Virus record (IMG/VR): IMGVR_UViG_3300000301_000017
Location: 1 to 60,042 of that record
Length of the DNA: 60,042 nucleotides
Reading direction: 5' to 3' (one strand)
From: a virus
A program made the translations under genes and the position numbers. Shown here one piece after another: positions 4,535 through 53,531 of this stretch; position 1 is the stretch's first letter, and each line of letters opens with the position of its first letter. The notes below the pieces were generated by a model that worked only from the letters and a program-made list of their open reading frames with translations, had not been told where the DNA came from and searched no databases.

Positions 4535-4536
4535 GG

Positions 4537-5368: not shown

Positions 5369-5410
5369 GTGATAACCACCTCCTGTAGTTTCAGTATATC
5401 ACGCCGCCGC

Positions 5411-5468
5411 TCACTATGCAAACTTTTTTTAGATTATTCTTGACTTTTTGCATGCATAGTGATAATAT
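5411..5468 (+). promoter_or_regulatory. Early rightward promoter with operator inverted repeat
   Basis: TTGACT (5440..5445), a 17-nt spacer and TAATAT (5463..5468). The perfect 10-nt inverted repeat TCACTATGCA (5411..5420) / TGCATAGTGA (5453..5462) overlaps the spacer. A third TCACTA-like half-site lies near 5476..5485. Confidence 0.7.
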
Positions 5469-5521
5469 AAAATTGCTTAGTGAGCAAAATAAGTAACACT
5501 AAGTTATTTGGAAAAGGGGGG

Positions 5522-5689
5522 ATGAGGTTGCTCACAGAAACGCAGATGTCGGATGTGCTGGAAATTGCACATTTGCTTGAAAAGGTAGATCAAAAGTATC
5601 TACCGATGATCGCGACCGGTGTTTTTATGCTGCTGGCACGTGACCAGGTAGATAAAGAAAAAGGAGCTTCCGAAGTAGCTCCTAAGTAA
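5522..5689 (+). CDS. First early gene, small protein of unknown function
   Basis: A GGGGGG RBS precedes ATG 5522. It sits in a Cro-like position but has no clear HTH. Confidence 0.45.
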   Translation: MRLLTETQMSDVLEIAHLLEKVDQKYLPMIATGVFMLLARDQVDKEKGASEVAPK

Positions 5690-5784
5690 TGGTTATGAAT
5701 GGGCATAGAAACCCTAAACAGGCTAAAGAAAAATTTTATGCTGCTCTTGATGAACTGATTCAAGAAAAGGAGGTGAGAGCATGA
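5689..5784 (+). other. 31-codon ORF that looks like a truncated tail of the C-type RHH genes
   Basis: It ends ...ELIQEKEVRA with the same 21-nt junction gaaaaggaggtgagagcATGA as 6340..6360. Confidence 0.3.
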
Positions 5785-5921
5785 CCCGTGAACAAACGAC
5801 GATCCGCTTACCTGTTGAGCTCAAAGAAAAACTACAGCAAGAAGCCAACGTGAAAGGAAAATCCTATAACAATTTGGTTGAAATTATACTTTACAGTTGG
5901 GTCAGGAATTTTCTAAGATGA
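5781..5921 (+). CDS. RHH-like small protein, type A copy 1 (MTREQTTIRLP...)
   Basis: A beta-strand motif TTIRLP is followed by two predicted helices. It is ATGA-coupled to the upstream ORF and has paralogues at 6600 and 8481. Confidence 0.6.
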   Translation: MTREQTTIRLPVELKEKLQQEANVKGKSYNNLVEIILYSWVRNFLR

Positions 5922-7951: not shown

Positions 7952-8131
7952 ATGCTTGAAACCACCATTTACGCCGTGTTGATCGGCGCCGTCGCGGCGG
8001 GGACCATCGCCGCTGAAAAGAGATCCCGTCATCTGCGTGAGCAGCGCGCGGCAGACAAAGAAGCATACCGCATGCGCGTCCAGCAGAACCGCGCTGAGCT
8101 TCGCAAAGCCCTGCTGCAGGGTAGCCTGTGA
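7952..8131 (+). CDS. Small single-pass membrane protein
   Basis: A hydrophobic N-terminus is followed by a basic helical tail. A paralogue-like ORF lies at 9070..9234. Confidence 0.4.
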   Translation: MLETTIYAVLIGAVAAGTIAAEKRSRHLREQRAADKEAYRMRVQQNRAELRKALLQGSL

Positions 8132-8142
8132 GGTGGGACATC

Positions 8143-8484
8143 ATGTTTACAAAAGAAGAACTCGAAGAGATTGCGAAGGCGGACGCTGAGATCGACGCGA
8201 TGGAAGATACCGTAACGCCTGAAAGCCTTGCAATCTCTCGAGAACTTGATAAGGTGGCGCATAAGCAGGCAGTAAGCGCAGGCAGATTAAAAAGCCTTAC
8301 ACCGGAGGAGCGAGCTGAACACCGGAAGCTCCTCCATCGAGAATACATGAGGGACTACAATCATAGACCCTATGTAATGGAAAGGATAAAGGCCTACAAT
8401 AGCCGACCAGAAGTACGAGAAAAGCGCATTGCATATCTACGCGAGTGGCGGGCAAGAAAAAAACGGCAGGAGGAATTCCAATGA
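8143..8484 (+). CDS. Hypothetical protein
   Basis: The ORF has a GAGGTGG RBS and no recognisable motif. Confidence 0.4.
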   Translation: MFTKEELEEIAKADAEIDAMEDTVTPESLAISRELDKVAHKQAVSAGRLKSLTPEERAEHRKLLHREYMRDYNHRPYVMERIKAYNSRPEVREKRIAYLREWRARKKRQEEFQ

Positions 8485-8621
8485 ATCGCGAACAAACAAC
8501 AATCAGAATTCCTGTGAAACTCAAAGAGACCATTAAGATAGAAGCGAAAAAAAGAGGATTTTCATTCAACGCTTTGATTCTGATGATCTTGAACGAGGAA
8601 CGAAACCATCATCAAACGTAA
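8481..8621 (+). CDS. RHH-like small protein, type A copy 3
   Basis: MNREQTTIRIPVKLKETIKIEAKKRGFSFNALIL. It is ATGA-coupled to the upstream gene. Confidence 0.6.
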   Translation: MNREQTTIRIPVKLKETIKIEAKKRGFSFNALILMILNEERNHHQT

Positions 8622-8787
8622 TTGGTCCATGTTTTCCTTCCCATTCGCTTATATGGGACAAGATAAGCTGTTCAATTTCTTTGTTTGCCGATCTTCCATT
8701 ACGATCAGCAATGTATTTTAGCTTGTCCATTGTCTCAGAAGGAATTCTGAGCGCATACTGCGGATGCTTATGAACGCCTTGTGGCAT
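8566..8787 (-). CDS. Arc/Mnt-like RHH repressor, type B copy 3
   Basis: QYALRIPSETMDKLKYIADRNGRSANKEIE. It overlaps A3 convergently by 56 nt. Confidence 0.7.
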   Translation of the reverse strand: MPQGVHKHPQYALRIPSETMDKLKYIADRNGRSANKEIEQLILSHISEWEGKHGPITFDDGFVPRSRSSESKR

Positions 8788-8851
8788 ATTGACACCTCCT
8801 TGGCACTTTTATGATTTTATAATAACCGCAAAAATAAAAAACGAAAAGATA

Positions 8852-8880
8852 TTGACATCACAATGACGGCCACTTATAAT
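8852..8880 (+). promoter_or_regulatory. Consensus sigma-70 promoter of cassette 3
   Basis: TTGACA, a 17-nt spacer and TATAAT, in the same context (atattgacatcac) as cassette 1. Confidence 0.7.
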
Positions 8881-8923
8881 ATAAGTGTCAAGTGGACATC
8901 CACTACGTGCTGGAGGTGATCAT

Positions 8924-9076
8924 GTGCAACGGTCGCGAGTAGGACTCCGCATACCTTACGATCTCAATACCTATTTGATTTTACGATCGGAGAAACAAGG
9001 AGTATCAAAGAACGCCCTGATCCTGCAGATCCTGTGGGAATGGGTAGAGAATCAGAAGGAGGAACCAAAATGTTAA
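8924..9076 (+). CDS. RHH-like small protein, type C copy 3 (GTG start)
   Basis: VGLRIPYDLNTYLILRSEKQGVSKNALILQILWEWVENQKE. A GGAGGTG RBS precedes it. Confidence 0.55.
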   Translation: MQRSRVGLRIPYDLNTYLILRSEKQGVSKNALILQILWEWVENQKEEPKC

Positions 9077-9234
9077 GCATTATCTTGATTATCACCGGTG
9101 GCGCGTGCATCGCGACGGCGGCCATCATGTTGACGGCAACGGCCAATCATAACCATCGTGTGCGTGCACAGCGGGCCAAACAAATCGCAGCTGCACGCGC
9201 AGAGATGCGCAAGCAGCTGAAAGGAGGAGAATAA
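9070..9234 (+). CDS. 54-aa single-pass membrane protein, payload of cassette 3
   Basis: MLSIILIITGGACIATAAIMLTA is followed by a basic tail. Its start overlaps the C3 stop. Confidence 0.45.
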   Translation: MLSIILIITGGACIATAAIMLTATANHNHRVRAQRAKQIAAARAEMRKQLKGGE

Positions 9235-9237
9235 TTG

Positions 9238-9600
9238 ATGGATAAAGAAAAGGCCGCCCCCGCGCCGAAGCGCGAAAGCGGCAAAGAAAACTTATCTTCT
9301 ATTAGTATCGCACAAAGCACCCATTTTGTCAAGGTATCAGATGTGCTGCATGCGTTGAAAGAAGACGACGAAACCCCGACCGAGTGGTCCAAAGGATACA
9401 ACGCTGCTCTCGGTGATATGAAGACGGTCATTAGAGGCCTAAAAAAATACCGAGCGGAGGAAGATGATGTATGGAGCCGGCTGCGGCGTGACTGTGAGGA
9501 TCCAAATAGCGGACTAAGCGCTTGTGAGTACAACGTGCCAGGACCAAATGGAGGACGGTATCTGATAAGCATTATGTATCGAGAGACAAGCAGAAGATAA
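9238..9600 (+). CDS. Hypothetical protein
   Basis: The ORF has a GGAGGAG RBS. Confidence 0.4.
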   Translation: MDKEKAAPAPKRESGKENLSSISIAQSTHFVKVSDVLHALKEDDETPTEWSKGYNAALGDMKTVIRGLKKYRAEEDDVWSRLRRDCEDPNSGLSACEYNVPGPNGGRYLISIMYRETSRR

Positions 9601-9612
9601 GGAGGATCCGAA

Positions 9613-9825
9613 ATGATTGTAGCAGGATATGAAGGAATTGGTCCAGAGTCAGGAAAGCATGTAGACGCAGATGACGCGCTGAACTATGCGATGATCCGCT
9701 GCGGGATCACTTGGGACGCACCGATCGATGGATTCAAACCGGACGTTCGCGATGAGTTCGAGCAGGCGTTTATGGAGTGGTTTTACTCTGGTAACTGGGT
9801 GCCTGTAATCACAAAAGAAGCGTGA
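9613..9825 (+). CDS. Hypothetical protein
   Basis: The ORF has an AAGGAGGA RBS. Confidence 0.4.
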   Translation: MIVAGYEGIGPESGKHVDADDALNYAMIRCGITWDAPIDGFKPDVRDEFEQAFMEWFYSGNWVPVITKEA

Positions 9826-9835
9826 GGAGAAAACT

Positions 9836-10342
9836 ATGGATCATTTATATGAACTGACCGCTGACTATATGCGGCTGCTGGATGCAATCGAGGCGGGGGA
9901 GATCCCCGAAGAAGCGATTGAAGATACGCTGGCAGGCATTGAAGGTGAAATTGACGAGAAGATTGACGCGATTGCCTGCATGGTCAAGGAATTGACTGGC
10001 GAGGCGGAAAGCATCTCGGAAGAAGAACGAAGCCTTGCAGAGCGCCGACGCGCGAAGGAACGGAAGGCCGCACGCCTGAAGGATTATATCCGCGACCAGA
10101 TGGCGCTGACGAATAGGAAAAAGATCGAAACGGCGCGCAATGTTGTGCGCTTAGGAGGATTAACCAAGCGCGTTGAGATCACAGATCTAGAAGCGCTCAA
10201 AAGTTATAAGGAAGCATGGAAGCCGTACACCTACAAGGTTACGGACGTAGACAAGGTCGCACTTAGGGCCTTGCTGCAAGAAGGGAAACAAATCCCTGGT
10301 GCGAAATTATCAGAAGGGCAGCGCACCTTGACGATCAAGTGA
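9836..10342 (+). CDS. Siphovirus Gp157-like protein
   Basis: LYELTADYMRLLDAIEAGEIPEEAIEDTL..IEGE...KIDAIA is the typical Gp157-family N-terminus. It lies upstream of a recombinase. Confidence 0.6.
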   Translation: MDHLYELTADYMRLLDAIEAGEIPEEAIEDTLAGIEGEIDEKIDAIACMVKELTGEAESISEEERSLAERRRAKERKAARLKDYIRDQMALTNRKKIETARNVVRLGGLTKRVEITDLEALKSYKEAWKPYTYKVTDVDKVALRALLQEGKQIPGAKLSEGQRTLTIK

Positions 10343-13124: not shown

Positions 13125-13866
13125 TAGACTCGACCGAGAAGTGAAGGCTCTGAATGATACAGAAGGGGACTTGTCAGGCCGGCATTGCGAAACATGCAAG
13201 GACAAAGGTGTCGTCTACGTGCGAAACGGCGAATACATCGAATATCGGACATGCAGCTGCATGCCGGCAAGGCGGGCAATGTGGAGAATCGAGCGAAGCG
13301 GGCTCGGTGAGAGCTTGCAGCGCTGCACATTTGAGACGTTCCTGGCGTCGGAACCATGGCAGAAGGCAATGAAAACGGCAGCCGACCGGTTTGTGGAGGA
13401 TCATAGTGGCGCGTGGTTTTTTGCCGGCGGACAACCTGGCGCAGGCAAAACGCACATCTGCACGGCGATCGTCGGAGAGTTGTTAAAGCGTGGGAAGGAA
13501 GCACGGTACATGCTCTGGAAGGACGAAGCAACGTACCTTAAGGCACATATAAACGAGGACACCTATGAGGCGCGTATCGGTACGCTTAAGACGGTTGAGG
13601 TTCTATACATTGACGACTTCTTCAAGACGCCGTATGCCGATGATGGAACGCGCCGTCGGCCGACGGCTGGGGATCTCAACCTGGCGTTCGAGATTCTCAA
13701 TGCGCGGTATGTCGGACGGCTGACGACGCTGATCACGAGCGAGCGGACGATCGACGAGCTGCTGGACATTGACGAGGCGGTCGGCAGCCGCATATACGAG
13801 CGGAGTAAGGGCTATGCGTATAATCTGGCGCCTGATCGCGCGAAAAATTGGAGGTTGCGTGTATGA
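13027..13866 (+). CDS. DnaC/IstB-like AAA+ helicase loader
   Basis: Walker A is GQPGAGKTH and Walker B is VLYIDDF. The start is uncertain (13027 or 12931) and overlaps the upstream gene. Confidence 0.8.
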   Translation: MEDKDWTIHPSLVAELKRRLSQPHPVNTASIYDRLDREVKALNDTEGDLSGRHCETCKDKGVVYVRNGEYIEYRTCSCMPARRAMWRIERSGLGESLQRCTFETFLASEPWQKAMKTAADRFVEDHSGAWFFAGGQPGAGKTHICTAIVGELLKRGKEARYMLWKDEATYLKAHINEDTYEARIGTLKTVEVLYIDDFFKTPYADDGTRRRPTAGDLNLAFEILNARYVGRLTTLITSERTIDELLDIDEAVGSRIYERSKGYAYNLAPDRAKNWRLRV

Positions 13867-14069
13867 ACGCATATGAGGAGAGCGTGCTTTGCCGAGCGGA
13901 AGCAAAGCGGACACGCATTATTGCCCGCGAGGGTGACCTTGGCGGGGAGCGGCGGAAGCCGTGGTATCTGGAGGCGCTGGCCGACGAGATCCGTCAGCAG
14001 GATTATGCCATGGCGATGATGGACGGAAGCAGAAAAGCAATGATTGGCCGCGCAGCGGCCGGCGTGTAA
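13863..14069 (+). CDS. Hypothetical protein
   Basis: The ORF is ATGA-coupled to the loader gene. Confidence 0.35.
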   Translation: MNAYEESVLCRAEAKRTRIIAREGDLGGERRKPWYLEALADEIRQQDYAMAMMDGSRKAMIGRAAAGV

Positions 14070-14083
14070 GAAGGGAGAAAAAC

Positions 14084-14944
14084 ATGAAAGTGCAACTTAA
14101 AGACTTGCAACGTGGAGATACGTTTTATGGCGCGGGCATCCAGTGGCTCGTGCTGGGCCACACCAAAAGTAGCCAAGGGTTACCCATTGTCACGCACATC
14201 GTTTCCTCCGGCATTGTCGAGTGCCGGGCCTTCGATGAGACGAACCGCAACGACCTCGGCGTCAGCACCCTTTTGACCTACCTCAACGGGGAATTCCTCG
14301 AGAGGCTCTATGACGCCTTCGGAGAAGGGGCCGTCGAGGAACAGTTCATCGACCTCACCAGCAACGACGGCCTCAAGGACTACGGGAACGCCAAGACGAA
14401 GGTGGGCCTGCTCACCGAGGATGAGTACCGGCAGCACCGCGACATCCTCCCGCCCCTAGACGACGAGGGCTGGTGGTGGCTGGCGACGCCGTACTCCACC
14501 GAGCGGGCAGGCTACTCATCATCCTATGTCCGCATCGTGTACTCGGACGGGGCGCTCGGCAACTACAGCGCGTGCATCGACACCTACGGCGTCCGCCCGG
14601 CTTTGTATCTGAAATCCGAAATCTCGGTATCTCTGGAAGGGAACGACGAAAACACCATTGAGGTGAGTGAGAAGGAGCTCTATAAGGCGGCGGTGCAGAA
14701 GTTCGGCGAGCAAGCCCAAATCCTCGTCGCCATCGAGGAGATGAGCGAACTCACCAAGGTCCTCCTCAAGTACATCCGGCTAATAGATTTCGACCAAGGA
14801 AACTACGATGATATCATCGAAAACATAGCTGAGGAGCGGGCAGACGTCGAAATTATGATGAAGCAGCTCAATGAAATTTTCGGATCCAACGACGTTGCTA
14901 TGACGAAGAAAATGGATCATCTTAGAGAACTCGTGAAATCATGA
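14084..14944 (+). CDS. Fusion of a DUF6273-like domain and a MazG-like NTP pyrophosphohydrolase
   Basis: The N-terminal part has GAGIQWLVLG ... YGVRPALYL. The C-terminal part has AIEEMSELTK ... AEERADVEIMMKQL, the MazG EExxE / ExxD pattern. Confidence 0.6.
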   Translation: MKVQLKDLQRGDTFYGAGIQWLVLGHTKSSQGLPIVTHIVSSGIVECRAFDETNRNDLGVSTLLTYLNGEFLERLYDAFGEGAVEEQFIDLTSNDGLKDYGNAKTKVGLLTEDEYRQHRDILPPLDDEGWWWLATPYSTERAGYSSSYVRIVYSDGALGNYSACIDTYGVRPALYLKSEISVSLEGNDENTIEVSEKELYKAAVQKFGEQAQILVAIEEMSELTKVLLKYIRLIDFDQGNYDDIIENIAEERADVEIMMKQLNEIFGSNDVAMTKKMDHLRELVKS

Positions 14945-14971
14945 GATTTTATTTTAGATTGGAGGATCACA

Positions 14972-15223
14972 ATGAATAACGCAATATGCAGAGGGTGCGG
15001 AGCATCTATCGTTTGGATAAAAACGAAATCCGGAAAGTCAATGCCCTGCGATGCGGAACCCGTCCATTATGTACTTGGTGGCAAAGACAGGGCCGTTACG
15101 GCATCTGGAAACGTTGTGAGCTGTGAGATTGTATCGGGCGGAGGCGAGATCGGATATCGTCCGCATTGGGCAACGTGTCCGAACGCGAAGCGGTTTAAAA
15201 TCGGTGGCAGTAGGAGGAACTGA
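14972..15223 (+). CDS. Small zinc-ribbon protein
   Basis: CRGCGASIVW ... GYRPHWATCPN. Confidence 0.5.
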   Translation: MNNAICRGCGASIVWIKTKSGKSMPCDAEPVHYVLGGKDRAVTASGNVVSCEIVSGGGEIGYRPHWATCPNAKRFKIGGSRRN

Positions 15224-15226
15224 AAA

Positions 15227-15634
15227 GTGAGCTACGATATTTATTTGGTTGATCCTGTTACACGGGAGGCGCTGCAAGCTGATGTCGCACATCAGATGCG
15301 AGGTGGTACATACGCAATAGGCGGGACTTCCGAGATGTGGCTTAACGTCACTTACAACTACGCGAAGTGGTATTACAAAGACTATGCCTTCGGGGAGAAA
15401 GGCATTCGTGCTATCTATGGCCTTTCTGGATCCGAGAGTATTCCAGTGCTCCGAAAGGCTATTGATGGCCTGGAAGCATCCAAAGAGGAGCTACCTGAAG
15501 ATGAAGTTAAAAAGTGCGCGGAGAATGGCATAGCCGGATATTGGGTGCCTACTAGAGAGAACGCTATCAAACCACTGTACCAGCTTTTGGCATTTGCTCA
15601 GATGCGTCCTGATGGAGTATGGGAAGGGGATTGA
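15227..15634 (+). CDS. Hypothetical protein (GTG start)
   Basis: The ORF has a GGAGG RBS. Confidence 0.4.
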   Translation: MSYDIYLVDPVTREALQADVAHQMRGGTYAIGGTSEMWLNVTYNYAKWYYKDYAFGEKGIRAIYGLSGSESIPVLRKAIDGLEASKEELPEDEVKKCAENGIAGYWVPTRENAIKPLYQLLAFAQMRPDGVWEGD

Positions 15635-15643
15635 CATAAAGAA

Positions 15644-15889
15644 ATGAAAGCTGAAAAGTGCAAAGCGTGCGGATCTCCCGTTATTTGGAAGGAAACAAGA
15701 ATCGGGAAAGTTCTGTGCGACGCGCATCCTATTCATTACGAGGTCGGAGGAGACTAAGTGATCGTCACAGAAGACGGAGACACGGTGTTACGAGCAATCG
15801 TGCCCAGCGGAGGAAAGCTCGGATATCGCCCGCACTATGCTACTTGCAAGAGCGCAGAAAATCTGGTTGATGCGTATAAGGAGAAATGA
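15644..15889 (+). pseudogene. Paralogue of 14972..15223 interrupted by an in-frame TAA (15755..15757)
   Basis: CKACGSPVIW...HYEVGGD*VIVTEDG...GYRPHYATC aligns end to end with the intact copy. Confidence 0.55.
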
Positions 15890-18683: not shown

Positions 18684-18970
18684 AAGCGAGAGTGCCAGTC
18701 AGCCGCAACGTCAGGCGAAAAATTCGAGATGAAGTAAAAAAGGAATTGGACTCGGAAGGTGAAGCGCGCACGCGTCGGCATATGAAGCTGTTCGCGGTGG
18801 CGCTGCACGAAGAAGGGTATGGTCCGATGCGAATCTGCCGGGTAATCGATTGCGTTTCAAGGTTGTGCGACGAGGAACGCGAAGATGAAATCTTTTGGTA
18901 CCACGTGGATCGCTTGCTGATCGAGCAGCTCGGGATCCCGTTTGACAGAGAAGAATATGATGAAATTTGA
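18680..18970 (+). CDS. Hypothetical protein
   Basis: The ORF is ATGA-coupled. Confidence 0.4.
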   Translation: MKARVPVSRNVRRKIRDEVKKELDSEGEARTRRHMKLFAVALHEEGYGPMRICRVIDCVSRLCDEEREDEIFWYHVDRLLIEQLGIPFDREEYDEI

Positions 18971-19218
18971 TTGAAACGGGGAGGGATTGGCTCTTGGATA
19001 TCACGAAGCGCCGACTGCGAAAAATTGCAGAGGCCGAAATGCTCATGGGTATGTACATAAAGACTTGCCCGCGCTGCGGGGGAAAACACATCTTGCTGCA
19101 GCAGGCAGAGTACGGAGATCGGCCGAGTTATTTTGTCGGATGCAACGATTGTGGATTGGTTCGAGGGCCAGCCAAAACCGTGAAAAAGGCCGTGAAGGCT
19201 TGGAACAGGAATGCATAG
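18967..19218 (+). CDS. Lar-family restriction-alleviation-like zinc-ribbon protein
   Basis: CPRCGGKHILL...YFVGCNDCGL...AVKAWNRNA matches the Lar-type pattern. The true start may be ATG 19039. Confidence 0.5.
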   Translation: MIETGRDWLLDITKRRLRKIAEAEMLMGMYIKTCPRCGGKHILLQQAEYGDRPSYFVGCNDCGLVRGPAKTVKKAVKAWNRNA

Positions 19219-19231
19219 GGGAGGCGTGGCA

Positions 19232-19450
19232 ATGGCATATTCAGAAGCAAACGAAGAGCGTGGACCATTGCTGCACGCAAATCCGTATGGCTATCGCGTA
19301 AATATAAACCACCCATCCATAAATCCGTTGTATAGACGGTACAAGGCGTGGAGGGAAATTCCAGATACGTGCCCGTTATCTGATGGGGAGCGAAAAGAAT
19401 TTGAGGCGTACCTGCTCCCAAAGTTTCAGAAAAAGGAGAGAGCGAAATGA
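19232..19450 (+). CDS. Hypothetical protein
   Basis: The ORF has a GGGGAGG RBS. Confidence 0.35.
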   Translation: MAYSEANEERGPLLHANPYGYRVNINHPSINPLYRRYKAWREIPDTCPLSDGERKEFEAYLLPKFQKKERAK

Positions 19451-19659
19451 GCGTAAAAGACTGTCAGACGTGCGGATTTCATACGGTGATCGAAGGCGTC
19501 GAAAACGTATGTCAGTATTGCTTGCTGGCTGGGCAGCCGCGCGGATGCAAAGCGGGGATAGGCTGCACGCGCTGGGCAGATCCGGAGGAAGTAAAGAAAA
19601 TTCTGAGAAAAGTCCGGACGCCTGTCCCGAAGAAATCGGATTCGAAGATGGGCGCATGA
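19447..19659 (+). CDS. Small Cys-rich protein
   Basis: CQTCG...CQYC...C...C, ATGA-coupled. Confidence 0.4.
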   Translation: MSVKDCQTCGFHTVIEGVENVCQYCLLAGQPRGCKAGIGCTRWADPEEVKKILRKVRTPVPKKSDSKMGA

Positions 19660-20093
19660 GGAGTATTCGATTTTGTGTCCCCGGAACGCCTCGGGGAAAA
19701 GAGCGAGCAAGGACTGTACACGTCGACGGCCGCGTCATGACGTTTACGCCTGGACAAACGGTTGCCTACGAGGACCGGGTGCGAGGCGCGTTTTTGAAAG
19801 CTGGTGGAGGAACTTGGACAAAAGTGGACACTCCACTGTGTATCCAAATTTTAGCCAAGTATCCGGTACCAAAAAGTGTGAGTAAAAAGCGCAGGGCGGC
19901 GATGCTCTCCGGCCGGCTGTTTCCTACAAAAAAGCCGGACTGGGACAACGTAGGGAAGATCATCTGCGACGCGCTCAACGGCATCGCGTATCACGACGAT
20001 GCGCAGATTGTGTTTGCTGCAGTATCAAAGTCGTACACAGAGGGCGAAGGGTGTGTAGAAGTCACCCTTACAGCACTTGAGAAAGGGGCGTGA
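19656..20093 (+). CDS. rusA: RusA-family Holliday junction resolvase
   Basis: PGTPRGKERAR ... KKPDWDNVGKIICDALNGIAYHDDAQI is the RusA signature. Confidence 0.85.
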   Translation: MRSIRFCVPGTPRGKERARTVHVDGRVMTFTPGQTVAYEDRVRGAFLKAGGGTWTKVDTPLCIQILAKYPVPKSVSKKRRAAMLSGRLFPTKKPDWDNVGKIICDALNGIAYHDDAQIVFAAVSKSYTEGEGCVEVTLTALEKGA

Positions 20094-45984: not shown

Positions 45985-46937
45985 TGTGGACTGAAAAGAT
46001 GGACGAAATCCTGAAAAGCCCCGCTGCGCGCCGGTTTGTACCGCAATTGTCGCCAATTTATGGTGATGCCTACACCGCGCTCTGGCTATTTAACGTGATT
46101 GGTGCCATGCTTGATCGTGTAAACAATGTAACGGACAGCCTGGCGGATCAAGCGCTTCCGCAAACTGTTACATGGGGCATCGCGTATTTTGAGCAGGACT
46201 ATGGCATCATAAGCGACGAAAGCCTTCCACTTGAAACCCGTAGGGCCAATCTGTTGACAAAGATTCGCACGCGTGCGCCACTGAATCCTGCGCGCGTCGA
46301 AAAGATATTGTCGACGCTTATCGGCGCAGATGTAAAACTTACGGAAAACATCAGCAAAAACCGATTTCAAGTTTCCGTGAAGGGAGACTTCGGGAGCGAC
46401 CAGAAACAAGCGCTGCGAGATGCACTGGACCGCATGAAGCCGGCGCATGTTATCTATCTGCTGGTCTATATTATTGAGCTTTTAGTAAGTGAAAAGGAAA
46501 ATCTCAAGTTTGTACCAGTGCGATTTCGTTTTACAGGTGCGGTGAATTCCTGGATGATGGAGCCCGTGCTTTTGAACGGCGAGAAAAATTTGGATGGTAC
46601 GTGGTTCCTTGATCAGCAGATACGCAGGCATTTTATTTTGCGGCGCCTTCGAATTCGAACGCGCCTGCATGAAGAGGCGCACATCTCCATCCGTTGGCCC
46701 ATGCAGCCTATGCGGCTGCAAGAGCGTATAAATAGTCATATGCGGTTTTCAGTCCGCCACGAAGATAAGGTCGAGACGCGATTACAAAATCGTGCCACGA
46801 CCTTTTTTGTACGCGTGGCATGCCCGATCAAGTCATCTGGAAAGCTCATTCGGGATTCCAGGTGGTATTTAGACGGTACGTATAACCTTAACGGCACGCG
46901 CCGTCTCCACGCAGAATTAAAAGAGGAGGTCTTTTAA
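45984..46937 (+). CDS. Tail protein with a DUF2313 (XkdU/YmfQ-like) N-terminus and an Arg-rich C-terminal half
   Basis: LSPIYGDAYTALWLFNVIG...RRANLLTKIRTRAP. Confidence 0.55.
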   Translation: MWTEKMDEILKSPAARRFVPQLSPIYGDAYTALWLFNVIGAMLDRVNNVTDSLADQALPQTVTWGIAYFEQDYGIISDESLPLETRRANLLTKIRTRAPLNPARVEKILSTLIGADVKLTENISKNRFQVSVKGDFGSDQKQALRDALDRMKPAHVIYLLVYIIELLVSEKENLKFVPVRFRFTGAVNSWMMEPVLLNGEKNLDGTWFLDQQIRRHFILRRLRIRTRLHEEAHISIRWPMQPMRLQERINSHMRFSVRHEDKVETRLQNRATTFFVRVACPIKSSGKLIRDSRWYLDGTYNLNGTRRLHAELKEEVF

Positions 46938-47323
46938 TGGCAGCAGACAACAGTGTAATTACCGATGAACTGCGGAAGCGCTTGGCACAATGCGTTGCCG
47001 GCAGCATCAACACAATTTCGAGGGTCAAGTACATCGCCGTCGGCTCCGGCGGCGCGCCCGGCGGGACTCCCACGCCGCCTGCGGGATCCGCAACCGCGCT
47101 CGAGGATGAAAAAGGACGATATGAGGTCGGAAGTGTGGAATTCCCGGTCGATACGACCGCACGTTTTTACATCACCATTCCAGAAGCTGATTTGCCAGGG
47201 GTGTCGTTGAGTGAAATGGCGCTGGTTTCGGAAGACGGGGTATTGTATGGGATTCGACATACAACGCCAAAAGTGAAAGATACTGACGAAGAATTCCAGT
47301 TTGCCTTCGACCTCGAATTTTAA
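46937..47323 (+). CDS. Tail-collar fibre-like protein
   Basis: VKYIAVGSGG...LSEMALVSEDGVL pattern. Confidence 0.45.
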   Translation: MAADNSVITDELRKRLAQCVAGSINTISRVKYIAVGSGGAPGGTPTPPAGSATALEDEKGRYEVGSVEFPVDTTARFYITIPEADLPGVSLSEMALVSEDGVLYGIRHTTPKVKDTDEEFQFAFDLEF

Positions 47324-47341: not shown

Positions 47342-47932
47342 ATGCCCGAACGTGAAAATTATCCGATTTCCGAGTCTCCGGTCTACACGGAAGAGGTTCC
47401 ACAGCTGCTCGATGATGATCCGGCGAGCGCGACAAACACGTTTAACCCGCTGTTCCTTATCATTCTCAACAACATCAAAGCCTCTCATCAGCTGGCAGAA
47501 GCCGCCAAGGAGGCCGCAGACAAGGCAGCAGAAAACGGCGGGTATGTCTATCAGGACACTCCACCGGACAACAATGGCGTGTTGTGGTTTGATAGCGCCG
47601 CAAACACCATCAAATACTACGACGCAACTGACGAAACGTGGAAGCCAATTCCTGCAGGAACGGCGTGGCACTTTTCTGAAACTACCCAACAGGCGGGCGG
47701 CGCGGCGCCGGAAGGCGCCCGATCTGGTGATTATGTGCTCGATACTGCCGGTAATATCTTTATGGTTAATTCAGAGCTAAAGCTTGTATCCGCAGCGCAG
47801 GGCGCCTCCTATCTTGTACAGAGCTCGGCACCCGAAAACACCGGAAAGCTTTGGGTGGACACAGGAAACGGAAACGCGCTCAAGTATTATAACGGGAGCG
47901 CCTGGGTGTTAGTGCCGGCTGTATGGGGGTGA
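47342..47932 (+). CDS. Tail fibre protein
   Basis: Repeated LW(F/V)D....N.(I/L)KYY motifs, and position. Confidence 0.45.
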   Translation: MPERENYPISESPVYTEEVPQLLDDDPASATNTFNPLFLIILNNIKASHQLAEAAKEAADKAAENGGYVYQDTPPDNNGVLWFDSAANTIKYYDATDETWKPIPAGTAWHFSETTQQAGGAAPEGARSGDYVLDTAGNIFMVNSELKLVSAAQGASYLVQSSAPENTGKLWVDTGNGNALKYYNGSAWVLVPAVWG

Positions 47933-47938
47933 TAGAGA

Positions 47939-48724
47939 ATGAGTGAAATGACAGCGCCTGAAGCCGTCACGCTAAAGGAAAAGATCAAAAACGAGATGAA
48001 CCGTCGGCAGTATAACGGGTCTATGGTCGCTTATGCCGGCTCCGAGTACGACTTCGCGACGACTCCGACGTCAGGCGCGCCGATGAGCGCCCAGCAGGGA
48101 AACGCCATTATCGAGCCGCTCAACGCGGTCAATCCCATCGATGGCCTGAGCACTGCGCAGAGCGGCGAGCCGATTCCTGCAGCCTTTGACAACAGCAATT
48201 TGACGACCGTCGTCACAAACCTTGCGTCTCTCACGACGGAAGCTTCAAATGCAGGCTGCGCTGCCGCTTGCTCCGGTTTGTGTCAGAATCAGTGCTCGAC
48301 GGGGTGTACGGGGTGTTCTTCGTGTACAAGCTGTACCGGGTGCTCTGGAACATGCTCTGGTGTTTGTAGGAATAGCTGTTCGCGTAATTGCACGGGGGAC
48401 TGTGATGGATGTAGCGGATGTTCTGCTGCGTGCCGAAATAACTGTACAGGGTCTTGTGATGGATGTAGTGGATGCTCAGCTAACTGTAAGAATACCTGTG
48501 ATGTGAGTTGCAAGACTGGATGCTCTTCTTGTAAAAACGGATGCACAGGCTCCTGCAATGGTTGTCAAGGCTGTTCTGGTACGCAAAATACAGTAAGGCC
48601 ATCTACGCCTAGTGGATGTACAGGATGCCAAGGCTCATGCAACGGATACTGCAACGGTACCTGCGTGTCTTCTTGCGGTGCGTGTTCCGGATGTTCTGGT
48701 GCAAGGACAAATGTTGCAATGTAA
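47939..48724 (+). CDS. CXXX-repeat Cys-rich protein, candidate radical-SAM substrate
   Basis: The C-terminal ~150 aa is almost entirely C-x-x-x repeats (CSGLCQNQCSTGCTGCSSCTSCTGCSGTCSGVC...). Confidence 0.75.
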   Translation: MSEMTAPEAVTLKEKIKNEMNRRQYNGSMVAYAGSEYDFATTPTSGAPMSAQQGNAIIEPLNAVNPIDGLSTAQSGEPIPAAFDNSNLTTVVTNLASLTTEASNAGCAAACSGLCQNQCSTGCTGCSSCTSCTGCSGTCSGVCRNSCSRNCTGDCDGCSGCSAACRNNCTGSCDGCSGCSANCKNTCDVSCKTGCSSCKNGCTGSCNGCQGCSGTQNTVRPSTPSGCTGCQGSCNGYCNGTCVSSCGACSGCSGARTNVAM

Positions 48725-48737
48725 CAGGGGGAAAGTT

Positions 48738-49025
48738 ATGACTTATACTTTAGAAAAGACGCTTTACCACGATTTAGAAGCAGCAAACTATGAATACGAG
48801 CGCACAAAAGATCTGCTCGCTTTTATCATCAACAATCGAGCTTATCCTACTGGGAGTCATGAGTTCGATATTTGGGACGACCGGAACCGAAAAGCCTTTG
48901 TAACGTACCAAAAAGAAAAGGCGAAGTTCGAAAAGGAAGTAATCCCAGAAGTCACGGGCGTTACTGGAAATTTCGGATGGAATCTTGAGTTCGATACGGG
49001 GAAATTAGAGGTTTGGAATGCGTAA
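48738..49025 (+). CDS. 95-aa protein between precursor and maturase (CXXX-repeat system-associated, tentative)
   Basis: A GGGGGAAAG RBS precedes it and its stop overlaps the maturase start. Confidence 0.5.
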   Translation: MTYTLEKTLYHDLEAANYEYERTKDLLAFIINNRAYPTGSHEFDIWDDRNRKAFVTYQKEKAKFEKEVIPEVTGVTGNFGWNLEFDTGKLEVWNA

Positions 49026-50328
49026 CAGAATAGAGGAATATCCCGATTATTTGCAGCGCCTTTTTCCGCAAAAATATGTTCCCGGCGAAGACAAAATTCT
49101 TGCGAAGACAATAACCTTTCAAGTCACGGATGGGTGCAATTTGGCTTGCACGTATTGTTATCAAATCAATAAGCATCACAATTTTATGGACTTTGAAACG
49201 GCAAAAGAATTCATCGATATTCTTTTGGCGGATAAAAATCCATATATCAACACGAAGAATTCTCCGGGAATTATTATTGAGTTTATCGGTGGCGAACCCC
49301 TTCTCGCGATTGATTTAATCGACAAAATAACAGATTATTTTGTGACGAAAATGATCGAGCTGGATCATCCATGGGCAACGCGATTCATGCTTTCCATGTG
49401 CTCGAATGGTGTGTTGTATTTTGAGCCGAAGGTACAAGAATATCTGCAAAAGAACCGCTATTGGCTTTCCTTCTCTGTTTCCATTGACGGAAACAAAAAG
49501 CTGCACGACACGTGCCGAGTATTTCCGGACGGATCCGGAAGTTACGATATGGCAATTGCAGCGGCTAAAGACTACATGCAAAAATTTTCTAAAGAATGCG
49601 GCAGCAAAATGACTTTATCGCCGCAAAACGTAGCTTATACCTGTGAAGCTGTAGAAAACCTCATCAATTTAGGATACAAACAAATCTTTTTGAATTGTGC
49701 CTATGAGGAAGGGTGGACATCCGATAACGCCACAACGCTCTACTACCAGTTAAAGAAGTTGTCTGATTACATTCTCGAAAACGACTTAGAGGATGAACTC
49801 TACATTTCAATGTTTGAAAACGACATTGGAGTGCGTATGTTGCCTGAAGATAACGACAACTGGTGTGGTGGGAATGGAAACATGATTGCCGTGGATTACA
49901 AGGGAGATATCTTCCCGTGTTTGCGATTTATGGAGTCGTCCATCGGCGATGACGTGAAACCTCCAATCATCGGAACCGTAAAAGGCGGAATCATGTCGAC
50001 GCCTGAGCAGGTAAAATGCGTGAATTGCTTGAAGTGTGTTACACGCCGAAGCCAAAGTACCGACGAGTGCTTTAATTGTCCAATTGCAAAAGGCTGCGGA
50101 TGGTGTACGGCTTATAATTATCAGACGTTTGGGACGTTCGACAGGCGCGCGACATTTATCTGTAAGATGCATCAAGCGAGGATTTTGGCAAACTGCTATT
50201 TCTGGAATTCTTGCTATTTGAAGCACAAAAACAACAATGCGTTTCGCATGAATGTTCCGGATGAGTGGGCGCTTCAAATCATCGATGAAGACGAATTGAA
50301 CTATCTTAAAAAAATAGCAAGGGAGTAA
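49018..50328 (+). CDS. Radical SAM / SPASM-domain peptide maturase
   Basis: CNLACTYC is the CX3CX2C motif. The C-terminal Cys clusters are CGGNG...FPC and CVNCLKC...CFNCPIAKGCGWC...C. Confidence 0.85.
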   Translation: MRNRIEEYPDYLQRLFPQKYVPGEDKILAKTITFQVTDGCNLACTYCYQINKHHNFMDFETAKEFIDILLADKNPYINTKNSPGIIIEFIGGEPLLAIDLIDKITDYFVTKMIELDHPWATRFMLSMCSNGVLYFEPKVQEYLQKNRYWLSFSVSIDGNKKLHDTCRVFPDGSGSYDMAIAAAKDYMQKFSKECGSKMTLSPQNVAYTCEAVENLINLGYKQIFLNCAYEEGWTSDNATTLYYQLKKLSDYILENDLEDELYISMFENDIGVRMLPEDNDNWCGGNGNMIAVDYKGDIFPCLRFMESSIGDDVKPPIIGTVKGGIMSTPEQVKCVNCLKCVTRRSQSTDECFNCPIAKGCGWCTAYNYQTFGTFDRRATFICKMHQARILANCYFWNSCYLKHKNNNAFRMNVPDEWALQIIDEDELNYLKKIARE

Positions 50329-50648
50329 TGAACGTGGAAAAGAAGTATGTAAAGCTTTCAACAGGCGATGTTATTGAAGCAACACAGATTTCCTTCATGA
50401 TTCAGAAATCTGGCGAAAAAGAAAGCAGCGAGATGCTGCAGATCCAGATCGATACGGACAGCGCCGAAAATAAGACCGCGGAATATGCGAAGAAATTCGC
50501 GGCCGCGGCAATCAACGACGTGAACATCTATTCTGATGAAGATTGCAAAAATTTGATTTTTGCAGGCGGCGCCTATGCAGACGTCTCAAGTGTTTCTGCA
50601 ACGATCCGCGTATCTGGCCTTCTTTATAACATCACTCTCGAGAAGTAA
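50328..50648 (+). CDS. Hypothetical protein
   Basis: The ORF is ATGA-coupled to the maturase. Confidence 0.4.
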   Translation: MNVEKKYVKLSTGDVIEATQISFMIQKSGEKESSEMLQIQIDTDSAENKTAEYAKKFAAAAINDVNIYSDEDCKNLIFAGGAYADVSSVSATIRVSGLLYNITLEK

Positions 50649-50659
50649 GGAGGCGTGCC

Positions 50660-51820
50660 ATGAAAAAGGGCATTGACGTCTCGAATCACAACGGCAAGGT
50701 TGACTGGAAATCCGCCAAAAATGCCGGCCTGCAATTTGCTATGCTGCGTTGCGGGTACGGCTCAGACATTTCCAGCCAGGATGACAGCCAGTTTGCGCGC
50801 AATGTGTCGGAGTGCGAGAAGTACGGAATCCCCTGGGGTGCGTATCTGTACAGCTATGCGCTGACGGCGGACAACGCAAAAAGCGAGCTCTCCCACGCGC
50901 TACGGATGCTCAAAGGCAAGCGGCCAACGTATCCCGTGTTTATTGATATGGAGGACGCAGACGGCTACAAGAGGAAGCACGGCGGCATCCCGTCCAAGGC
51001 GACCAACACCGCGATCATCCAGACCTTTTGCGATGGTATCAAGGCGGCGGGCTTCAAAGCCGGGTACTATGTCAATCGTGACTGGTACTACAACTACATT
51101 GAGCCGGCAAAGCTGACAGGGTATGCATTCTGGTATGCGCGGCCCGGTGTCAGCAAGCCTGATCTCACCTGTGACATCTGGCAGGATAACTTCGACTCGA
51201 CCGGCGGCAGCTGGCCGGGCGCAAACCTGTCAAGCGGCGGCTGCGACACGGACATCGCATACACAGTGTACGGAGAGACGGAGAAGGACACGGAGCCGGG
51301 CCCGGCGCCGAGCGGATCCGCGTTTACGTCCGACACAACGGGCAAGCTGAATTTGACCAAGGGCGGGCGCTATCAGCTCAAAGTCACCTGCGCCGCCGGC
51401 CGGCCGAGCGTTGTCGCGGGCTCTGGTGGCGTGGTAGACATTACGTATACCGCGCGCGAAGGGAACGCATATCTTTATCGCATTACCGGTCTCGGAGACG
51501 TCGGATCGGCGACAGGTATCTACATCAACGGCGGCAAAGTCAGTACGTTTGTGGTGGCAATCGAGTCAGCGTGCAAATCCGATACAACGATGGACATGCA
51601 GCTGAAGGTCGGCACTTGTTACATGATCGGCCTTACCTCGCCGACAAAGCCGTCTGTAACATGCGGGACGGGCGGCATCGCATGTGTGGGCGGTGTCTTC
51701 CAGGATGGCGACGGCAAATGGTTGGCCCCGATTGTAGCGTATGGAAAAGGGAAAACGGGAGTCTATACGCAGATCAGCGGGGAAAGAGCCGTCAAACGAT
51801 TTGTGCTGAAAGGAACATAA
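50660..51820 (+). CDS. Endolysin: GH25 muramidase plus two copies of a beta domain
   Basis: KGIDVSNHNGKVDWKSAK..GLQFAMLRCGYG ... GAYLYSYA, followed by duplicated C-terminal modules. Confidence 0.88.
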   Translation: MKKGIDVSNHNGKVDWKSAKNAGLQFAMLRCGYGSDISSQDDSQFARNVSECEKYGIPWGAYLYSYALTADNAKSELSHALRMLKGKRPTYPVFIDMEDADGYKRKHGGIPSKATNTAIIQTFCDGIKAAGFKAGYYVNRDWYYNYIEPAKLTGYAFWYARPGVSKPDLTCDIWQDNFDSTGGSWPGANLSSGGCDTDIAYTVYGETEKDTEPGPAPSGSAFTSDTTGKLNLTKGGRYQLKVTCAAGRPSVVAGSGGVVDITYTAREGNAYLYRITGLGDVGSATGIYINGGKVSTFVVAIESACKSDTTMDMQLKVGTCYMIGLTSPTKPSVTCGTGGIACVGGVFQDGDGKWLAPIVAYGKGKTGVYTQISGERAVKRFVLKGT

Positions 51821-51823
51821 AGA

Positions 51824-52132
51824 ATGAGCATTGAAGAAATCTCCTCTATTTTGCAGCTTGTGGTTGTTATAGGGACTTTAATTGGATCCGTTTGGCGAGT
51901 GACGAAGCCCCTTCGCTCTATTTCGACGCGCCTTGAAACACTCGAAGAGTTTTGTCACAATGACTATCTCTCTACGCTGCGTCTGACTATTCTAAACGAC
52001 GATGTGCCGATCACTGAGCGTCTGTCTGCCGGCGAGAAGTATGTCAAAGAGGGCGGAAACGGTGCAGTAAAGGTCGTTTACCACATGCTGCAGGAAGAAT
52101 ATGAGCATCAGCAAGAAGGAAAAGAGGCGTAA
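51824..52132 (+). CDS. Single-pass membrane protein in the lysis cassette
   Basis: It has an N-terminal TM helix and sits in the lysis cassette. Confidence 0.4.
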   Translation: MSIEEISSILQLVVVIGTLIGSVWRVTKPLRSISTRLETLEEFCHNDYLSTLRLTILNDDVPITERLSAGEKYVKEGGNGAVKVVYHMLQEEYEHQQEGKEA

Positions 52133-52135
52133 AGT

Positions 52136-52606
52136 ATGGATATTACGGTTGTAGCGATCGTCTTCGGTGTCCTGTTTGGAATTACAGCGGTCGGTTGGCT
52201 GGTATACTACCTCGCCAAGCGCGGTGTCAACATGAAAGGCATCGTGGACAAGGTGCAGGGTGGTATTGACGTGGCAGATACTGTCACGGACGCGCTGGCA
52301 GCTTTCGCGCCAAATGTAGTGACGTCGACGCTGCAGAAGATTGTGGACGCGGCGAAGGTCGCCGTCGACAGCGCCGAGCAGTTATACTTAAATGATAGCA
52401 TCACCGCGGATCAGCGAAAGGCAACCGCCACGGATACGCTCAAGCGCGCACTGGCACTCGACGGCATCGCCTATGAGGGCGACGTGTCCGCGCTGGGCGA
52501 CGCCGCCATGGAGGCGGCCGTCAATGCGCTGCCGAACACGGCCGAGGCGAAGGCCGCAAAGGCAGCAGCCACTGTGCAGCCCGCGGCGGTCGCTGCCAAG
52601 GTGTGA
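52136..52606 (+). CDS. Holin, LL-H-like
   Basis: The N-terminal TM helix is followed by AVDSAEQLY...KRALALDGI. Confidence 0.55.
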   Translation: MDITVVAIVFGVLFGITAVGWLVYYLAKRGVNMKGIVDKVQGGIDVADTVTDALAAFAPNVVTSTLQKIVDAAKVAVDSAEQLYLNDSITADQRKATATDTLKRALALDGIAYEGDVSALGDAAMEAAVNALPNTAEAKAAKAAATVQPAAVAAKV

Positions 52607-52792: not shown

Positions 52793-52839
52793 AAAGGCCC
52801 CTGGCTTACCTTTCAAGGTAGGTTAGGGGCCTTTTTGCG
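52793..52839. terminator. Bidirectional terminator between convergent transcription units
   Basis: aaaggcccct pairs with aggggccttt, with T-runs on both strands. Confidence 0.7.
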
Positions 52840-52847
52840 TTTTGTAT

Positions 52848-53531
52848 TTAATAATCTAGGCCATATGCTTCTGGGTGGAGGCGGTTATAATAGATTCCAC
52901 CAAGTGAAACATTCAATGAAAACCACCAGTCAGGCTGGTCTTCAAATATCCAATCAGTTACTACGCTCAAGTCAACGCCAAGGGTTTCAGCGGCCTTTTT
53001 AACGGCATTATTAGCTTCAGTCTTACTCTTTGCGTTTTGCAGTTCATCGAGGTTTCCTGCTCGTCTGCAAACTTCTTCAATCACGATACTGTCAGGATAC
53101 TCAGGCTTTTCATGGGTGAGGTAATACGCTATCTCCTGAGTGCTCATTCCGTTAAGCACAGTTTGCGTAATCGGATGCCAATAATGCTTCTTTAGAATGT
53201 ACTTGTTTTTTGGACATCCGTTTTCATCGAATCGTTCTGGTTGTGATTTGCGAGCATCGAGTGAATCATTTAGCTCAAGCCATCTGTCAAGAATTTTGCT
53301 TTCTTTTCCTTGGTTGATTTTATCAAGCTCTGCGTTCACTTTATTTTCTAGGTCTTCAATCTGGGATTCGTCAGCATAGTAATTCCAACCTTCGTCTCGT
53401 TCAAACAAGCATCCGTACGCTTCCTTGATAGGGTCGCTCCATTTTGGTTCAACGTAGTAATATTGTAAGTCACCACACTGACCAATCGTTAGTTCTACGC
53501 GAATGTGCGTCCCTTTGATTTTGATGATCAT
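52848..53531 (-). CDS. Hypothetical 227-aa protein with its own promoter
   Basis: The ORF has a GGGAGG RBS and a promoter at 53618..53646. Confidence 0.5.
   Translation of the reverse strand: MIIKIKGTHIRVELTIGQCGDLQYYYVEPKWSDPIKEAYGCLFERDEGWNYYADESQIEDLENKVNAELDKINQGKESKILDRWLELNDSLDARKSQPERFDENGCPKNKYILKKHYWHPITQTVLNGMSTQEIAYYLTHEKPEYPDSIVIEEVCRRAGNLDELQNAKSKTEANNAVKKAAETLGVDLSVVTDWIFEDQPDWWFSLNVSLGGIYYNRLHPEAYGLDY

Follow-up and report, generated by a model that had tools for sequence, protein, structure and literature searches.

We describe here a cassette of three genes, encoding proteins named A, B and C below, in a 60,042-nucleotide (nt) stretch of viral DNA (IMG/VR record IMGVR_UViG_3300000301_000017, positions 1 to 60,042; hereafter the window). 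The genes lie between the tail and lysis genes of a phage late operon, where they would form a protein-maturation cassette, and they encode a cysteine-repeat protein of 261 amino acids (aa), a small cysteine-free protein of 95 aa and a radical S-adenosylmethionine (SAM)/SPASM enzyme of 436 aa. An earlier reading of the DNA alone (the sequence-only reading) had placed three open reading frames (ORFs) of these sizes here, with the Cys-rich protein directly after the fibre genes, and their coordinates proved correct. The cassette is a genuine member of a catalogued, uncharacterised family (TIGR04115), and we infer that A is modified by thioether chemistry and located on the virion. In the full account that we favour, to which we give a probability of about 0.4, B and C would together put thioether cross-links into A, a late, fibre-associated phage protein. 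The cassette is laid out as follows:

47939..48724, + strand: A, 261 aa, Cys-repeat protein
47939..48256, + strand: N-terminal domain of A (residues 1-106), conserved three-helix domain, presumed recognition/docking module
48257..48694, + strand: Cys-repeat region of A (C107-C252), 38 Cys, presumed substrate of C
48385..48492, + strand: 54-nt tandem duplication in the Cys-repeat coding part of A, two copies, 70% identical
48738..49025, + strand: B, 95 aa, no Cys, putative partner protein, conserved by family hidden Markov model (HMM)
49018..50328, + strand: C, 436 aa, radical SAM/SPASM maturase (TIGR04115, phrog_1802)

The enzyme C belongs to the TIGR04115 family

The protein C matches the NCBIfam model TIGR04115, entitled 'radical SAM peptide maturase, CXXX-repeat target family', over model positions 1-359 of 359 with a score of 460.9 bits (cutoff 350, E 3.6e-138) and, judged by this profile, clearly belongs to that family, as the sequence-only reading had suspected. 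The CX3CX2C motif of radical SAM enzymes is present as CNLACTYC at residues 40-47 (C40/C44/C47), and the SPASM cluster noticed earlier is complete, with seven cysteines arranged as C283-x12-G-x4-C301, C351-x2-C354-x5-C360-x2-C363 and C382. All these radical SAM and SPASM cysteines are invariant in 28/28 non-redundant homologues. C also matches the phage radical SAM family phrog_1802 (223.5 bits). The family of C comprises 3,704 database clusters at E<=1e-30, and close homologues already bear the name of the TIGR04115 family in several database sources.

Among characterised families, the best match of C is the PapB family (NF047865; 186.1 bits, cutoff 340), and a QhpD-type family comes third among all family matches (112 bits, cutoff 453), with the SCIFF (six-cysteines-in-forty-five) maturase model TIGR03974 at 106.1 bits (cutoff 425) and HxsB-type models matching weakly (99 bits). 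The families of PapB, QhpD type and SCIFF maturases, next best after TIGR04115, all form Cys thioethers, which supports thioether chemistry for C as well. CteB, a thioether-forming enzyme whose N-terminal segment is a peptide-recognition domain (RRE, for recognition element of ribosomally synthesised and post-translationally modified peptides, or RiPPs), is the nearest solved structure (5wgg, E 9e-22). Since the alignment begins at CteB residue 85 (query residue 19), C lacks the N-terminal segment of about 85 residues that precedes the radical SAM core of CteB. Two narrower assignments were rejected. C is not a PapB-type ranthipeptide maturase, its score being below the cutoff of that family and the repeat of A, with only four Asp and no Glu, differing from a CX3D/E substrate, and it is not a SCIFF maturase, given a score far below that cutoff and the missing N-terminal domain.

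Some homologues of C are longer, with 580-656 aa (at 7974-9935 of locus L005, and in the enzyme ORFs of L056, L074 and L075). Precomputed Hint/intein domains (PF01079, PF14890) are present in the homologues P0073, P0082 and P0083, and inteins thus appear to have entered this phage radical SAM gene.

Protein A combines a conserved N-terminal domain with a cysteine repeat

All 38 cysteines of A fall in residues 107-252, within its last ~146 residues, and make A the most Cys-rich product (14.5%) among the open frames of at least 100 aa in the window, ahead of a runner-up at 10%. The 37 spacings between successive cysteines comprise 22 of four residues (CXXX), 14 of three (CXX) and one of 15. Thus, 36/37 are of three or four residues, as compared with a mean of 9.3 (sd 2.6, maximum 21) in 20,000 permutations of A's own 146-residue Cys region. 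Moreover, Cys pairs less than three residues apart are absent from A and occur in every one of these shuffles. The run of C-x-x-x units described in the sequence-only reading therefore stands as regards the regular spacing of its cysteines, but it is a mixture of CXXX and CXX (22/14) and not a pure CXXX repeat. The residues between the cysteines are chiefly Ser, Gly, Thr and Asn, acidic residues are limited to four Asp with no Glu in 146 residues, and a Cys-free linker of 14 residues (213-226) precedes a last block of eight cysteines. At the DNA level, the repeats of about 57 nt reported earlier were not recovered as such. Instead, two 54-nt copies with 70% identity stand in tandem (48385-48438 and 48439-48492), accompanied by a looser 29-nt family of five copies; the only unit detected by Tandem Repeats Finder is one of 9 nt.

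The repeat begins with a junction of the form CxxxCxGxCxxxC, in which C107, C111, G113, C115 and C119 are invariant in alignments of 26 and 38 homologues. Beyond these four cysteines and the glycine, conservation of the repeat is loose and its length varies. AlphaFold2 modelling of A on a 38-sequence alignment gave a predicted local distance difference test (pLDDT) of 84-92 for residues 1-102, with helices at 6-22, 51-64 and 85-97 connected by long loops. In BFVD, the N-terminal domain matches uncharacterised homologues from uncultured siphoviruses only, and the sole PHROG match of A is phrog_6085, a family of unknown function. The Pfam accession PF27846.1 is precomputed on many A homologues (P0123-P0200), so that a recent Pfam family seems to cover the A-type protein.

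A search of the whole library with the Cys-free N-terminal part of A recovered 169 cluster representatives at E<=1e-3, in which the domain is nearly always N-terminal; 89 of the 100 matches of at least 150 aa contain at least 10 cysteines. Several members have other architectures. P0235 is an A-B fusion protein, and P0238 and a 968-aa protein of L005 have large non-Cys C-terminal domains added, for which a Pfam/PHROG scan gave no matches. In P0246, an insert of about 200 aa separates the N-terminal domain from the repeats. This insert, the one case of its kind in the A family, is related (tblastn, E 3e-6 to 8e-4) to antireceptor or 'collagen domain' segments of pneumococcal phages, to a virion protein of phage Twort and to protein J of a Mannheimia phage, and it has a weak, sub-threshold match to CBM_4_9. 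Taken as sequence evidence, these domain fusions point to a tail-associated role for A.

The exact A protein of the window is absent from a collection of 15 billion proteins in which B and the following ORF, D, of the same contig are present. Similarly, in the genome record CP135996.1 no gene is annotated over 9028-9436, within the A ORF of locus L078 (8988-9695), and B is over-extended there to 193 aa. Cys-repeat ORFs are thus often missed or mis-started by gene callers and therefore under-represented in protein databases.

Protein B is a conserved partner of the enzyme

A family HMM of B matches the ORF directly 5' of the enzyme gene in 74/77 related loci (described below), whether A is upstream or downstream; except in L054, L070 and L077, the matching ORF ends at the start of the enzyme gene. 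From this gene order we infer that B is a partner of C. The 95-aa ORF is thus a conserved partner, as had been supposed, but the 'small associated protein' family to which it had been assigned could not be confirmed as a database entry: B has no match in NCBIfam or Pfam at E up to 10, and 30 B-family members (the window copy and 29 homologues) matched no relevant NCBIfam model.

The AlphaFold2 model of B, which rests on a shallow alignment of 12 sequences, consists of a short beta-strand, two long antiparallel helices and a C-terminal beta-hairpin (pLDDT 88.6, predicted template modelling score 0.76). Foldseek searches of this model against the PDB returned generic alpha-hairpin proteins only (E >=0.35), and a profile search of PDB sequences found nothing relevant. 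Because these fold and profile searches were empty, we consider B to be a new small partner family and not a canonical RiPP recognition element; as modelled, it is a new family at the level of the fold. B is tandemly duplicated inside one protein of about 215 aa in L005 (7288-7935) and L071 (7334-7993), two loci which also have unusually long or multiple Cys-repeat proteins.

The cassette recurs in phages of anaerobic bacteria

Scans with C identified 77 loci, 61 from IMG/VR viral sequences and 16 from bacterial genomes or metagenome-assembled genomes (MAGs). A Cys-repeat ORF on the same strand is present within 5 kb of the enzyme in 71/77, in line with the idea that the Cys-rich protein is a conserved neighbour of the enzyme, and a profile of the N-terminal ~120 residues of A was found in 68/77. 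All three parts are present in 28 of 32 non-redundant loci; the other four are contigs that are cut short or variants in which a different domain, of non-Cys type, occurs. The A-type proteins consist of an N-terminal domain of about 105 aa, the invariant junction and then the repeat, with 17-126 cysteines and total lengths of 168-968 aa, and several loci encode two to four Cys-repeat ORFs.

The bacterial loci include Oscillospiraceae, Eubacterium pyruvativorans, Agathobacter, Vallitalea and a Treponemataceae MAG. The groups concerned are known to be anaerobic, as would suit an oxygen-labile enzyme and hosts in which cross-links other than disulfides are needed. No DNA similarity between the cassette and deposited phages was found, and the only deposited records encoding an enzyme homologue with more than 30% identity are two uncultured human-faecal contigs (~37%), one of which (MT835573.1) carries A, B and C. 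Matches in jumbo Erwinia and Salmonella phages (~24% identity) were set aside, as they appear to correspond to another radical SAM family. The carrier phage is described here as gut-type. Judged by the window and these relatives, the TIGR04115 system is essentially a recurrent three-part cassette in the tail/lysis module of phages with anaerobic, Firmicutes-type hosts.

The cassette is embedded in the tail and lysis module

The genes of the late operon around the cassette, and the signal that closes it, are the following:

46937..47323, + strand: 128-aa tail-collar-fibre-like protein (phrog_5417, E 4.9e-12; baseplate wedge/tail-collar fibre PHROGs; weak Pfam Phage_tail_fib match)
47342..47932, + strand: 196-aa fibre-like protein, C-terminal end KLWVDTGNGNALKYYNGSAWVLVPAVWG (weak tail-fibre PHROG matches), gene directly before A
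50328..50648, + strand: D, 106 aa, unknown function, found in the closest relatives only
50660..51820, + strand: GH25 endolysin, start of the lysis cassette (Pfam Glyco_hydro_25, E 2.8e-21)
51824..52606, + strand: two small holin-like genes, 102 aa and 156 aa (phrog_32121; phrog_6918, holin, E 4.8e-4)
52793..52834, + strand: strong intrinsic terminator closing the late operon, 19-bp stem with nine GC pairs followed by a T-run

In the window, a baseplate-J-like gene (phrog_6) and a tail protein gene (phrog_521) are followed by the collar-fibre-like and 196-aa fibre-like genes, the cassette, GH25 and the holin-like genes. The order baseplate J, tail, fibre, A-B-C-D, GH25 and holins is the same in two prophages (L078 and L079) of a complete Caproicibacterium genome, and the order from baseplate J to holin is found again in the metagenomic contig L084. 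Among the 32 non-redundant loci, the two genes 5' of the cassette most often match tail-fibre, baseplate and tail PHROGs and the three genes 3' of it most often match endolysin, amidase and holin PHROGs, these counts being per family rather than per locus and based on a simple, rather crude ORF caller. The location in the tail-fibre/lysis part of the late operon, noticed earlier for the window, thus extends to diverse phages.

The genes of the cassette are closely packed. A starts 6 nt past the stop codon of the 196-aa fibre-like gene, a gap of 13 nt containing what reads as a GGGGGA ribosome-binding site before the ATG of B separates A from B, C starts 294 nt after the end of A, and B and C overlap by 8 nt (ATGCGTAA), as do C and D by 1 nt; from these overlaps, B is predicted to be coupled to C, and C to D, at the level of translation. 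Neither a strong promoter nor a comparable terminator was found between 46800 and 52790, so that expression late in infection, together with the tail and lysis genes, would be expected, and we rejected the view of the cassette as an independent moron equipped with a promoter and a terminator. By its position and the lack of such signals, A is encoded within the tail module and would be co-transcribed with the fibre genes. The terminator at 52793-52834, probably bidirectional, separates the late operon of the + strand from a converging gene on the - strand (52848-53531).

The 196-aa ORF and A share a reading frame, in which they are parted by TGA TAG AGA (window 47930-47941); with two consecutive in-frame stops, production of A as a read-through extension of the fibre gene is unlikely, and we rejected it. 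The 196-aa protein has short homologues in L050 and L078 with matches to PHROGs of minor-tail and tail-fibre type. In 10/28 cases the gene before A ends, as in the window, in a motif LW[IV]D..KYY..W..VWG, more fully LW[IV]D[TS]-(8-12 residues)-[KR]YY..G..W....VWG (window 47845-47932). Such genes are found upstream in L001, L004, L006, L050, L057, L062, L065, L068, L069, L071 and L085, the last being a distant family member. A second group of proteins encoded upstream of A ends in LD.I.I.P...G[VI]F.. instead. The LW[IV]D...VWG motif may mark the docking partner of the N-terminal domain of A.

Iterative searches detected D only in L057, L001-3/L049 and L062, and also in Caproicibacterium as a 105-aa 'hypothetical protein'. 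It has no family matches in NCBIfam, Pfam, PHROG or PADLOC scans and, being confined to the nearest relatives, was rejected as a fourth universal component.

The two Caproicibacterium prophages, otherwise different, share a block of 4,860 bp (8708-13566 of L078/L079, CP135996.1) that is 99.1% identical and spans the end of the fibre gene, A, B, C, D, GH25 and the holins, which indicates that cassette and lysis genes were recently exchanged as one module. The GC content is 0.42 in B, 0.42 in C and 0.445 in D, as compared with 0.53 in A, 0.54 in the fibre gene and 0.57 in the endolysin gene, values that are ordinary for the window; the AT-rich signal taken as that of an inserted cassette hence covers B, C and D (0.42-0.445) but not A.

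Other accessory genes occur near some of these loci. In L078, the lysis cassette is closely followed by an RnlA/RnlB toxin-antitoxin pair and by Abi_alpha (13837-15667 and 18964-19740), and the tail module of L079 contains an insertion, on the other strand, of a ParE/YoeB-Phd pair (5292-5799). In L001, a 143-kb viral contig, a homing-endonuclease-like gene (3837-4592; phrog_314, E 2.1e-26) is located ~2.4 kb 5' of A, with one 530-aa gene in between.

Comparison with known maturation systems

In score, motifs and adjacent CXXX-repeat protein, nothing distinguishes the window system from the rest of TIGR04115. The sequence-only reading took the chemistry of this family not to be established, and indeed we found no publication on its chemistry or biology in the literature that could be searched, a set outside which much subscription literature lies. 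To the family definition, the present analysis adds the tail/lysis location, the obligate partner B and two features of the targets, namely their conserved helical N-terminal domain and their invariant junction.

PapB is a SPASM radical SAM enzyme that introduces several thioether links into PapA at CX3D motifs, with a Cys spacing of four residues (PMC9413430, PMC10739248). The PapB/PapA pair, which makes the ranthipeptide freyrasin, thus resembles C and A in combining a SPASM enzyme with a fixed Cys spacing. However, PapA is short, secreted and leader-bearing, with Asp/Glu acceptors, whereas A has 261 aa, a folded N-terminal domain of ~105 aa, the partner B and a place in a phage late operon. 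CteB has the same core and SPASM layout as C and, with its SCIFF peptide, occurs in Clostridia, but C is paired with the unrelated small protein B instead of carrying the N-terminal segment of CteB. QhpD, also a SPASM radical SAM enzyme, forms multiple Cys thioethers in QhpC, the gamma-subunit of quinohemoprotein amine dehydrogenase. Its target remains in a larger assembly and so sets a precedent for enzymes of this kind acting on structural proteins instead of secreted peptides; unlike A, QhpC is an enzyme subunit with a few links to Asp/Glu, no long repeat and no phage context.

In the HXS system (HxsA-D), a His-x-Ser repeat effector matured by a radical SAM enzyme blocks phage DNA entry (PMC13128918). 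Like the cassette, HXS is a system defined in silico that consists of a radical SAM enzyme and a simple-repeat target and is tied to phage biology (PMC13128918), but it is encoded by the host, mostly outside prophages, and its repeat is His-x-Ser, whereas the cassette belongs to a phage late operon and its repeat is of Cys. The collagen-like or low-complexity shafts of phage antireceptors resemble A in the proposed role only, that of a variable spacer with docking and distal domains; the CXXX repeats of A have no sequence relation to Gly-X-Y repeats. We know of no enzyme-installed cross-links in collagen-like phage fibres.

Proposed function and alternative explanations

In the mechanism that we propose, C would work together with the small alpha/beta protein B encoded directly 5' of it, B acting as the putative substrate-presenting partner, and the three-helix N-terminal domain of A with its CxxxCxGxCxxxC junction would be the recognition module. 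That A is the substrate of B plus C appears highly probable, given the Cys-repeat ORFs beside the enzyme in 71/77 loci, the invariant junction and the A-B fusion P0235. The 38 cysteines of A would then give rise to many intramolecular thioether (Cys-S to carbon) cross-links per molecule, as in PapB, QhpD and CteB systems; by analogy with these relatives, a Cys thioether is somewhat better than an even bet as the modification. The product would be a redox-insensitive, protease-resistant polypeptide of variable length, rod-like or knotted. Most likely, matured A would be held through its N-terminal domain on the virion tail as a fibre-associated shaft or spacer, in a role comparable to that of the collagen-like repeats of other phage antireceptors. 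We favour a virion role chiefly because members of the family are built in the manner of tail-fibre-like proteins, with a domain for docking, then a repetitive spacer and, in some, distal domains. This support from sequence architecture and gene order is circumstantial, and we propose A as a component of the virion tail only tentatively, with the odds slightly against it.

Several observations weigh against this account. C falls below the curated cutoff of every characterised family, and with four Asp and no Glu in the repeat, the acceptor logic of PapB and QhpD does not transfer directly to A. AlphaFold2 leaves the Cys region of A unstructured (pLDDT <50). The N-terminal domain has no fold match in a Foldseek search against the PDB, so that the fibre or adaptor fold that structure prediction might have revealed is not recognisable there or in BFVD, and A has zero matches in NCBIfam and Pfam, including tail-fibre families; A as a member of a known tail-fibre or receptor-binding family or fold was thus rejected. 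B was likewise rejected as a PqqD-like RiPP recognition element, its modelled fold not being the winged helix of three helices and a three-stranded sheet, and the PDB searches by fold and profile showing no similarity to PqqD, and the shallow alignment behind that model, like the crude neighbour counts, has to be set on the same side. In about a quarter of the non-redundant loci, A is downstream of the enzyme and not beside a fibre gene. Finally, cassette and lysis genes move together in Caproicibacterium, as a block of 4.86 kb, the GC content of B, C and D is distinctly lower than that of A and the flanks, and cargo genes, too, are classically found in the interval between fibre and lysis genes.

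Some of these points would suit a different fate of the product. A could be a RiPP-like protein, matured late in the cytoplasm and freed at lysis as a bacteriocin, signal or matrix-binding factor instead of a virion part, its long N-terminal domain being a leader like those of the NHLP or Nif11 type. We consider this unlikely, for the role and for the leader alike, although it has more in its favour than the other alternatives: secreted peptides are the usual products of the characterised members of the SPASM peptide-maturase radiation, to which C belongs, the cassette borders directly on the lysis genes and has moved with them as a 99.1%-identical block between two prophages, a transporter would be unneeded if lysis frees A, and A has no homology to structural proteins. 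Against it speak the lack of a protease or exporter gene in the cassette, here and in the gene maps of 32 loci, and the size of the A proteins, which with 168-968 aa and up to 126 cysteines are far above known RiPPs. In addition, antireceptor or tail-type domains are present on some members of the A family, and a position of the cassette behind a fibre gene whose C-terminal motif is conserved recurs among the loci.

Less probable still is that A binds metal or iron-sulfur clusters in the manner of metallothionein, with C modifying only a few sites at the junction or acting otherwise. In having Cys at intervals of 3-4 residues, interspersed with Gly, Ser and Thr, A does resemble metal-thiolate proteins, invariance is limited to the first four cysteines and the glycine while the remaining repeat is loose and of variable length, and the Cys region has no predicted fold of its own. 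However, the strict pairing of A with a SPASM maturase whose nearest relatives cross-link cysteines is left unaccounted for, a variation of more than seven-fold in repeat number is hard to reconcile with defined cluster sites, and no metal-handling genes were seen nearby in the maps of the window, prophages and contigs. We give least credit, as a very improbable case, to a prophage-borne defence or superinfection-exclusion system guarding the lysogen, for which HXS provides the precedent of an antiviral system consisting of a radical SAM enzyme and a repeat peptide defined in silico (PMC13128918). The GC content of the cassette below that of its surroundings, its mobility between prophages and the RnlA/RnlB and Abi_alpha genes close to the end of the L078 prophage would be in keeping with defence. 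Nevertheless, PADLOC 2.0 gives no system match (none for A and D, one marginal match for B at E 0.0075, and for C only a radical SAM core similarity to pVip at 38.8 bits), expression in the lysogen is not expected of a cassette that lacks its own strong promoter and terminator and is translationally coupled within the late operon, and the cassette is nearly always within the tail/lysis block rather than at prophage ends. HXS itself is reported as mostly chromosomal and not as prophage cargo (PMC13128918).

Implications

Within the account that we favour, in which B and C cross-link a fibre-associated A, a more specific possibility, which we regard as rather unlikely at present, is that the shaft of A is a thioether-ladder fibre, redox-proof and stitched by the phage's own radical SAM enzyme, in phages of strict anaerobes, where disulfides would not be dependable for a fibre. 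To our knowledge, this would be the first radical SAM post-translational modification of a phage structural protein. Should A be a cross-linked virion protein, it would represent a new category of phage structural biochemistry, and RiPP enzymology would gain a processive, multi-site Cys cross-linker with a new kind of partner protein. The question lends itself to direct testing, as two cassette-bearing prophages are present in Caproicibacterium argilliputei, a cultured isolate. TIGR04115 is a large family, named in annotation, with targets far larger than ordinary RiPPs, and the thioether-ladder fibre, if true, would assign a biological role to the whole of it.

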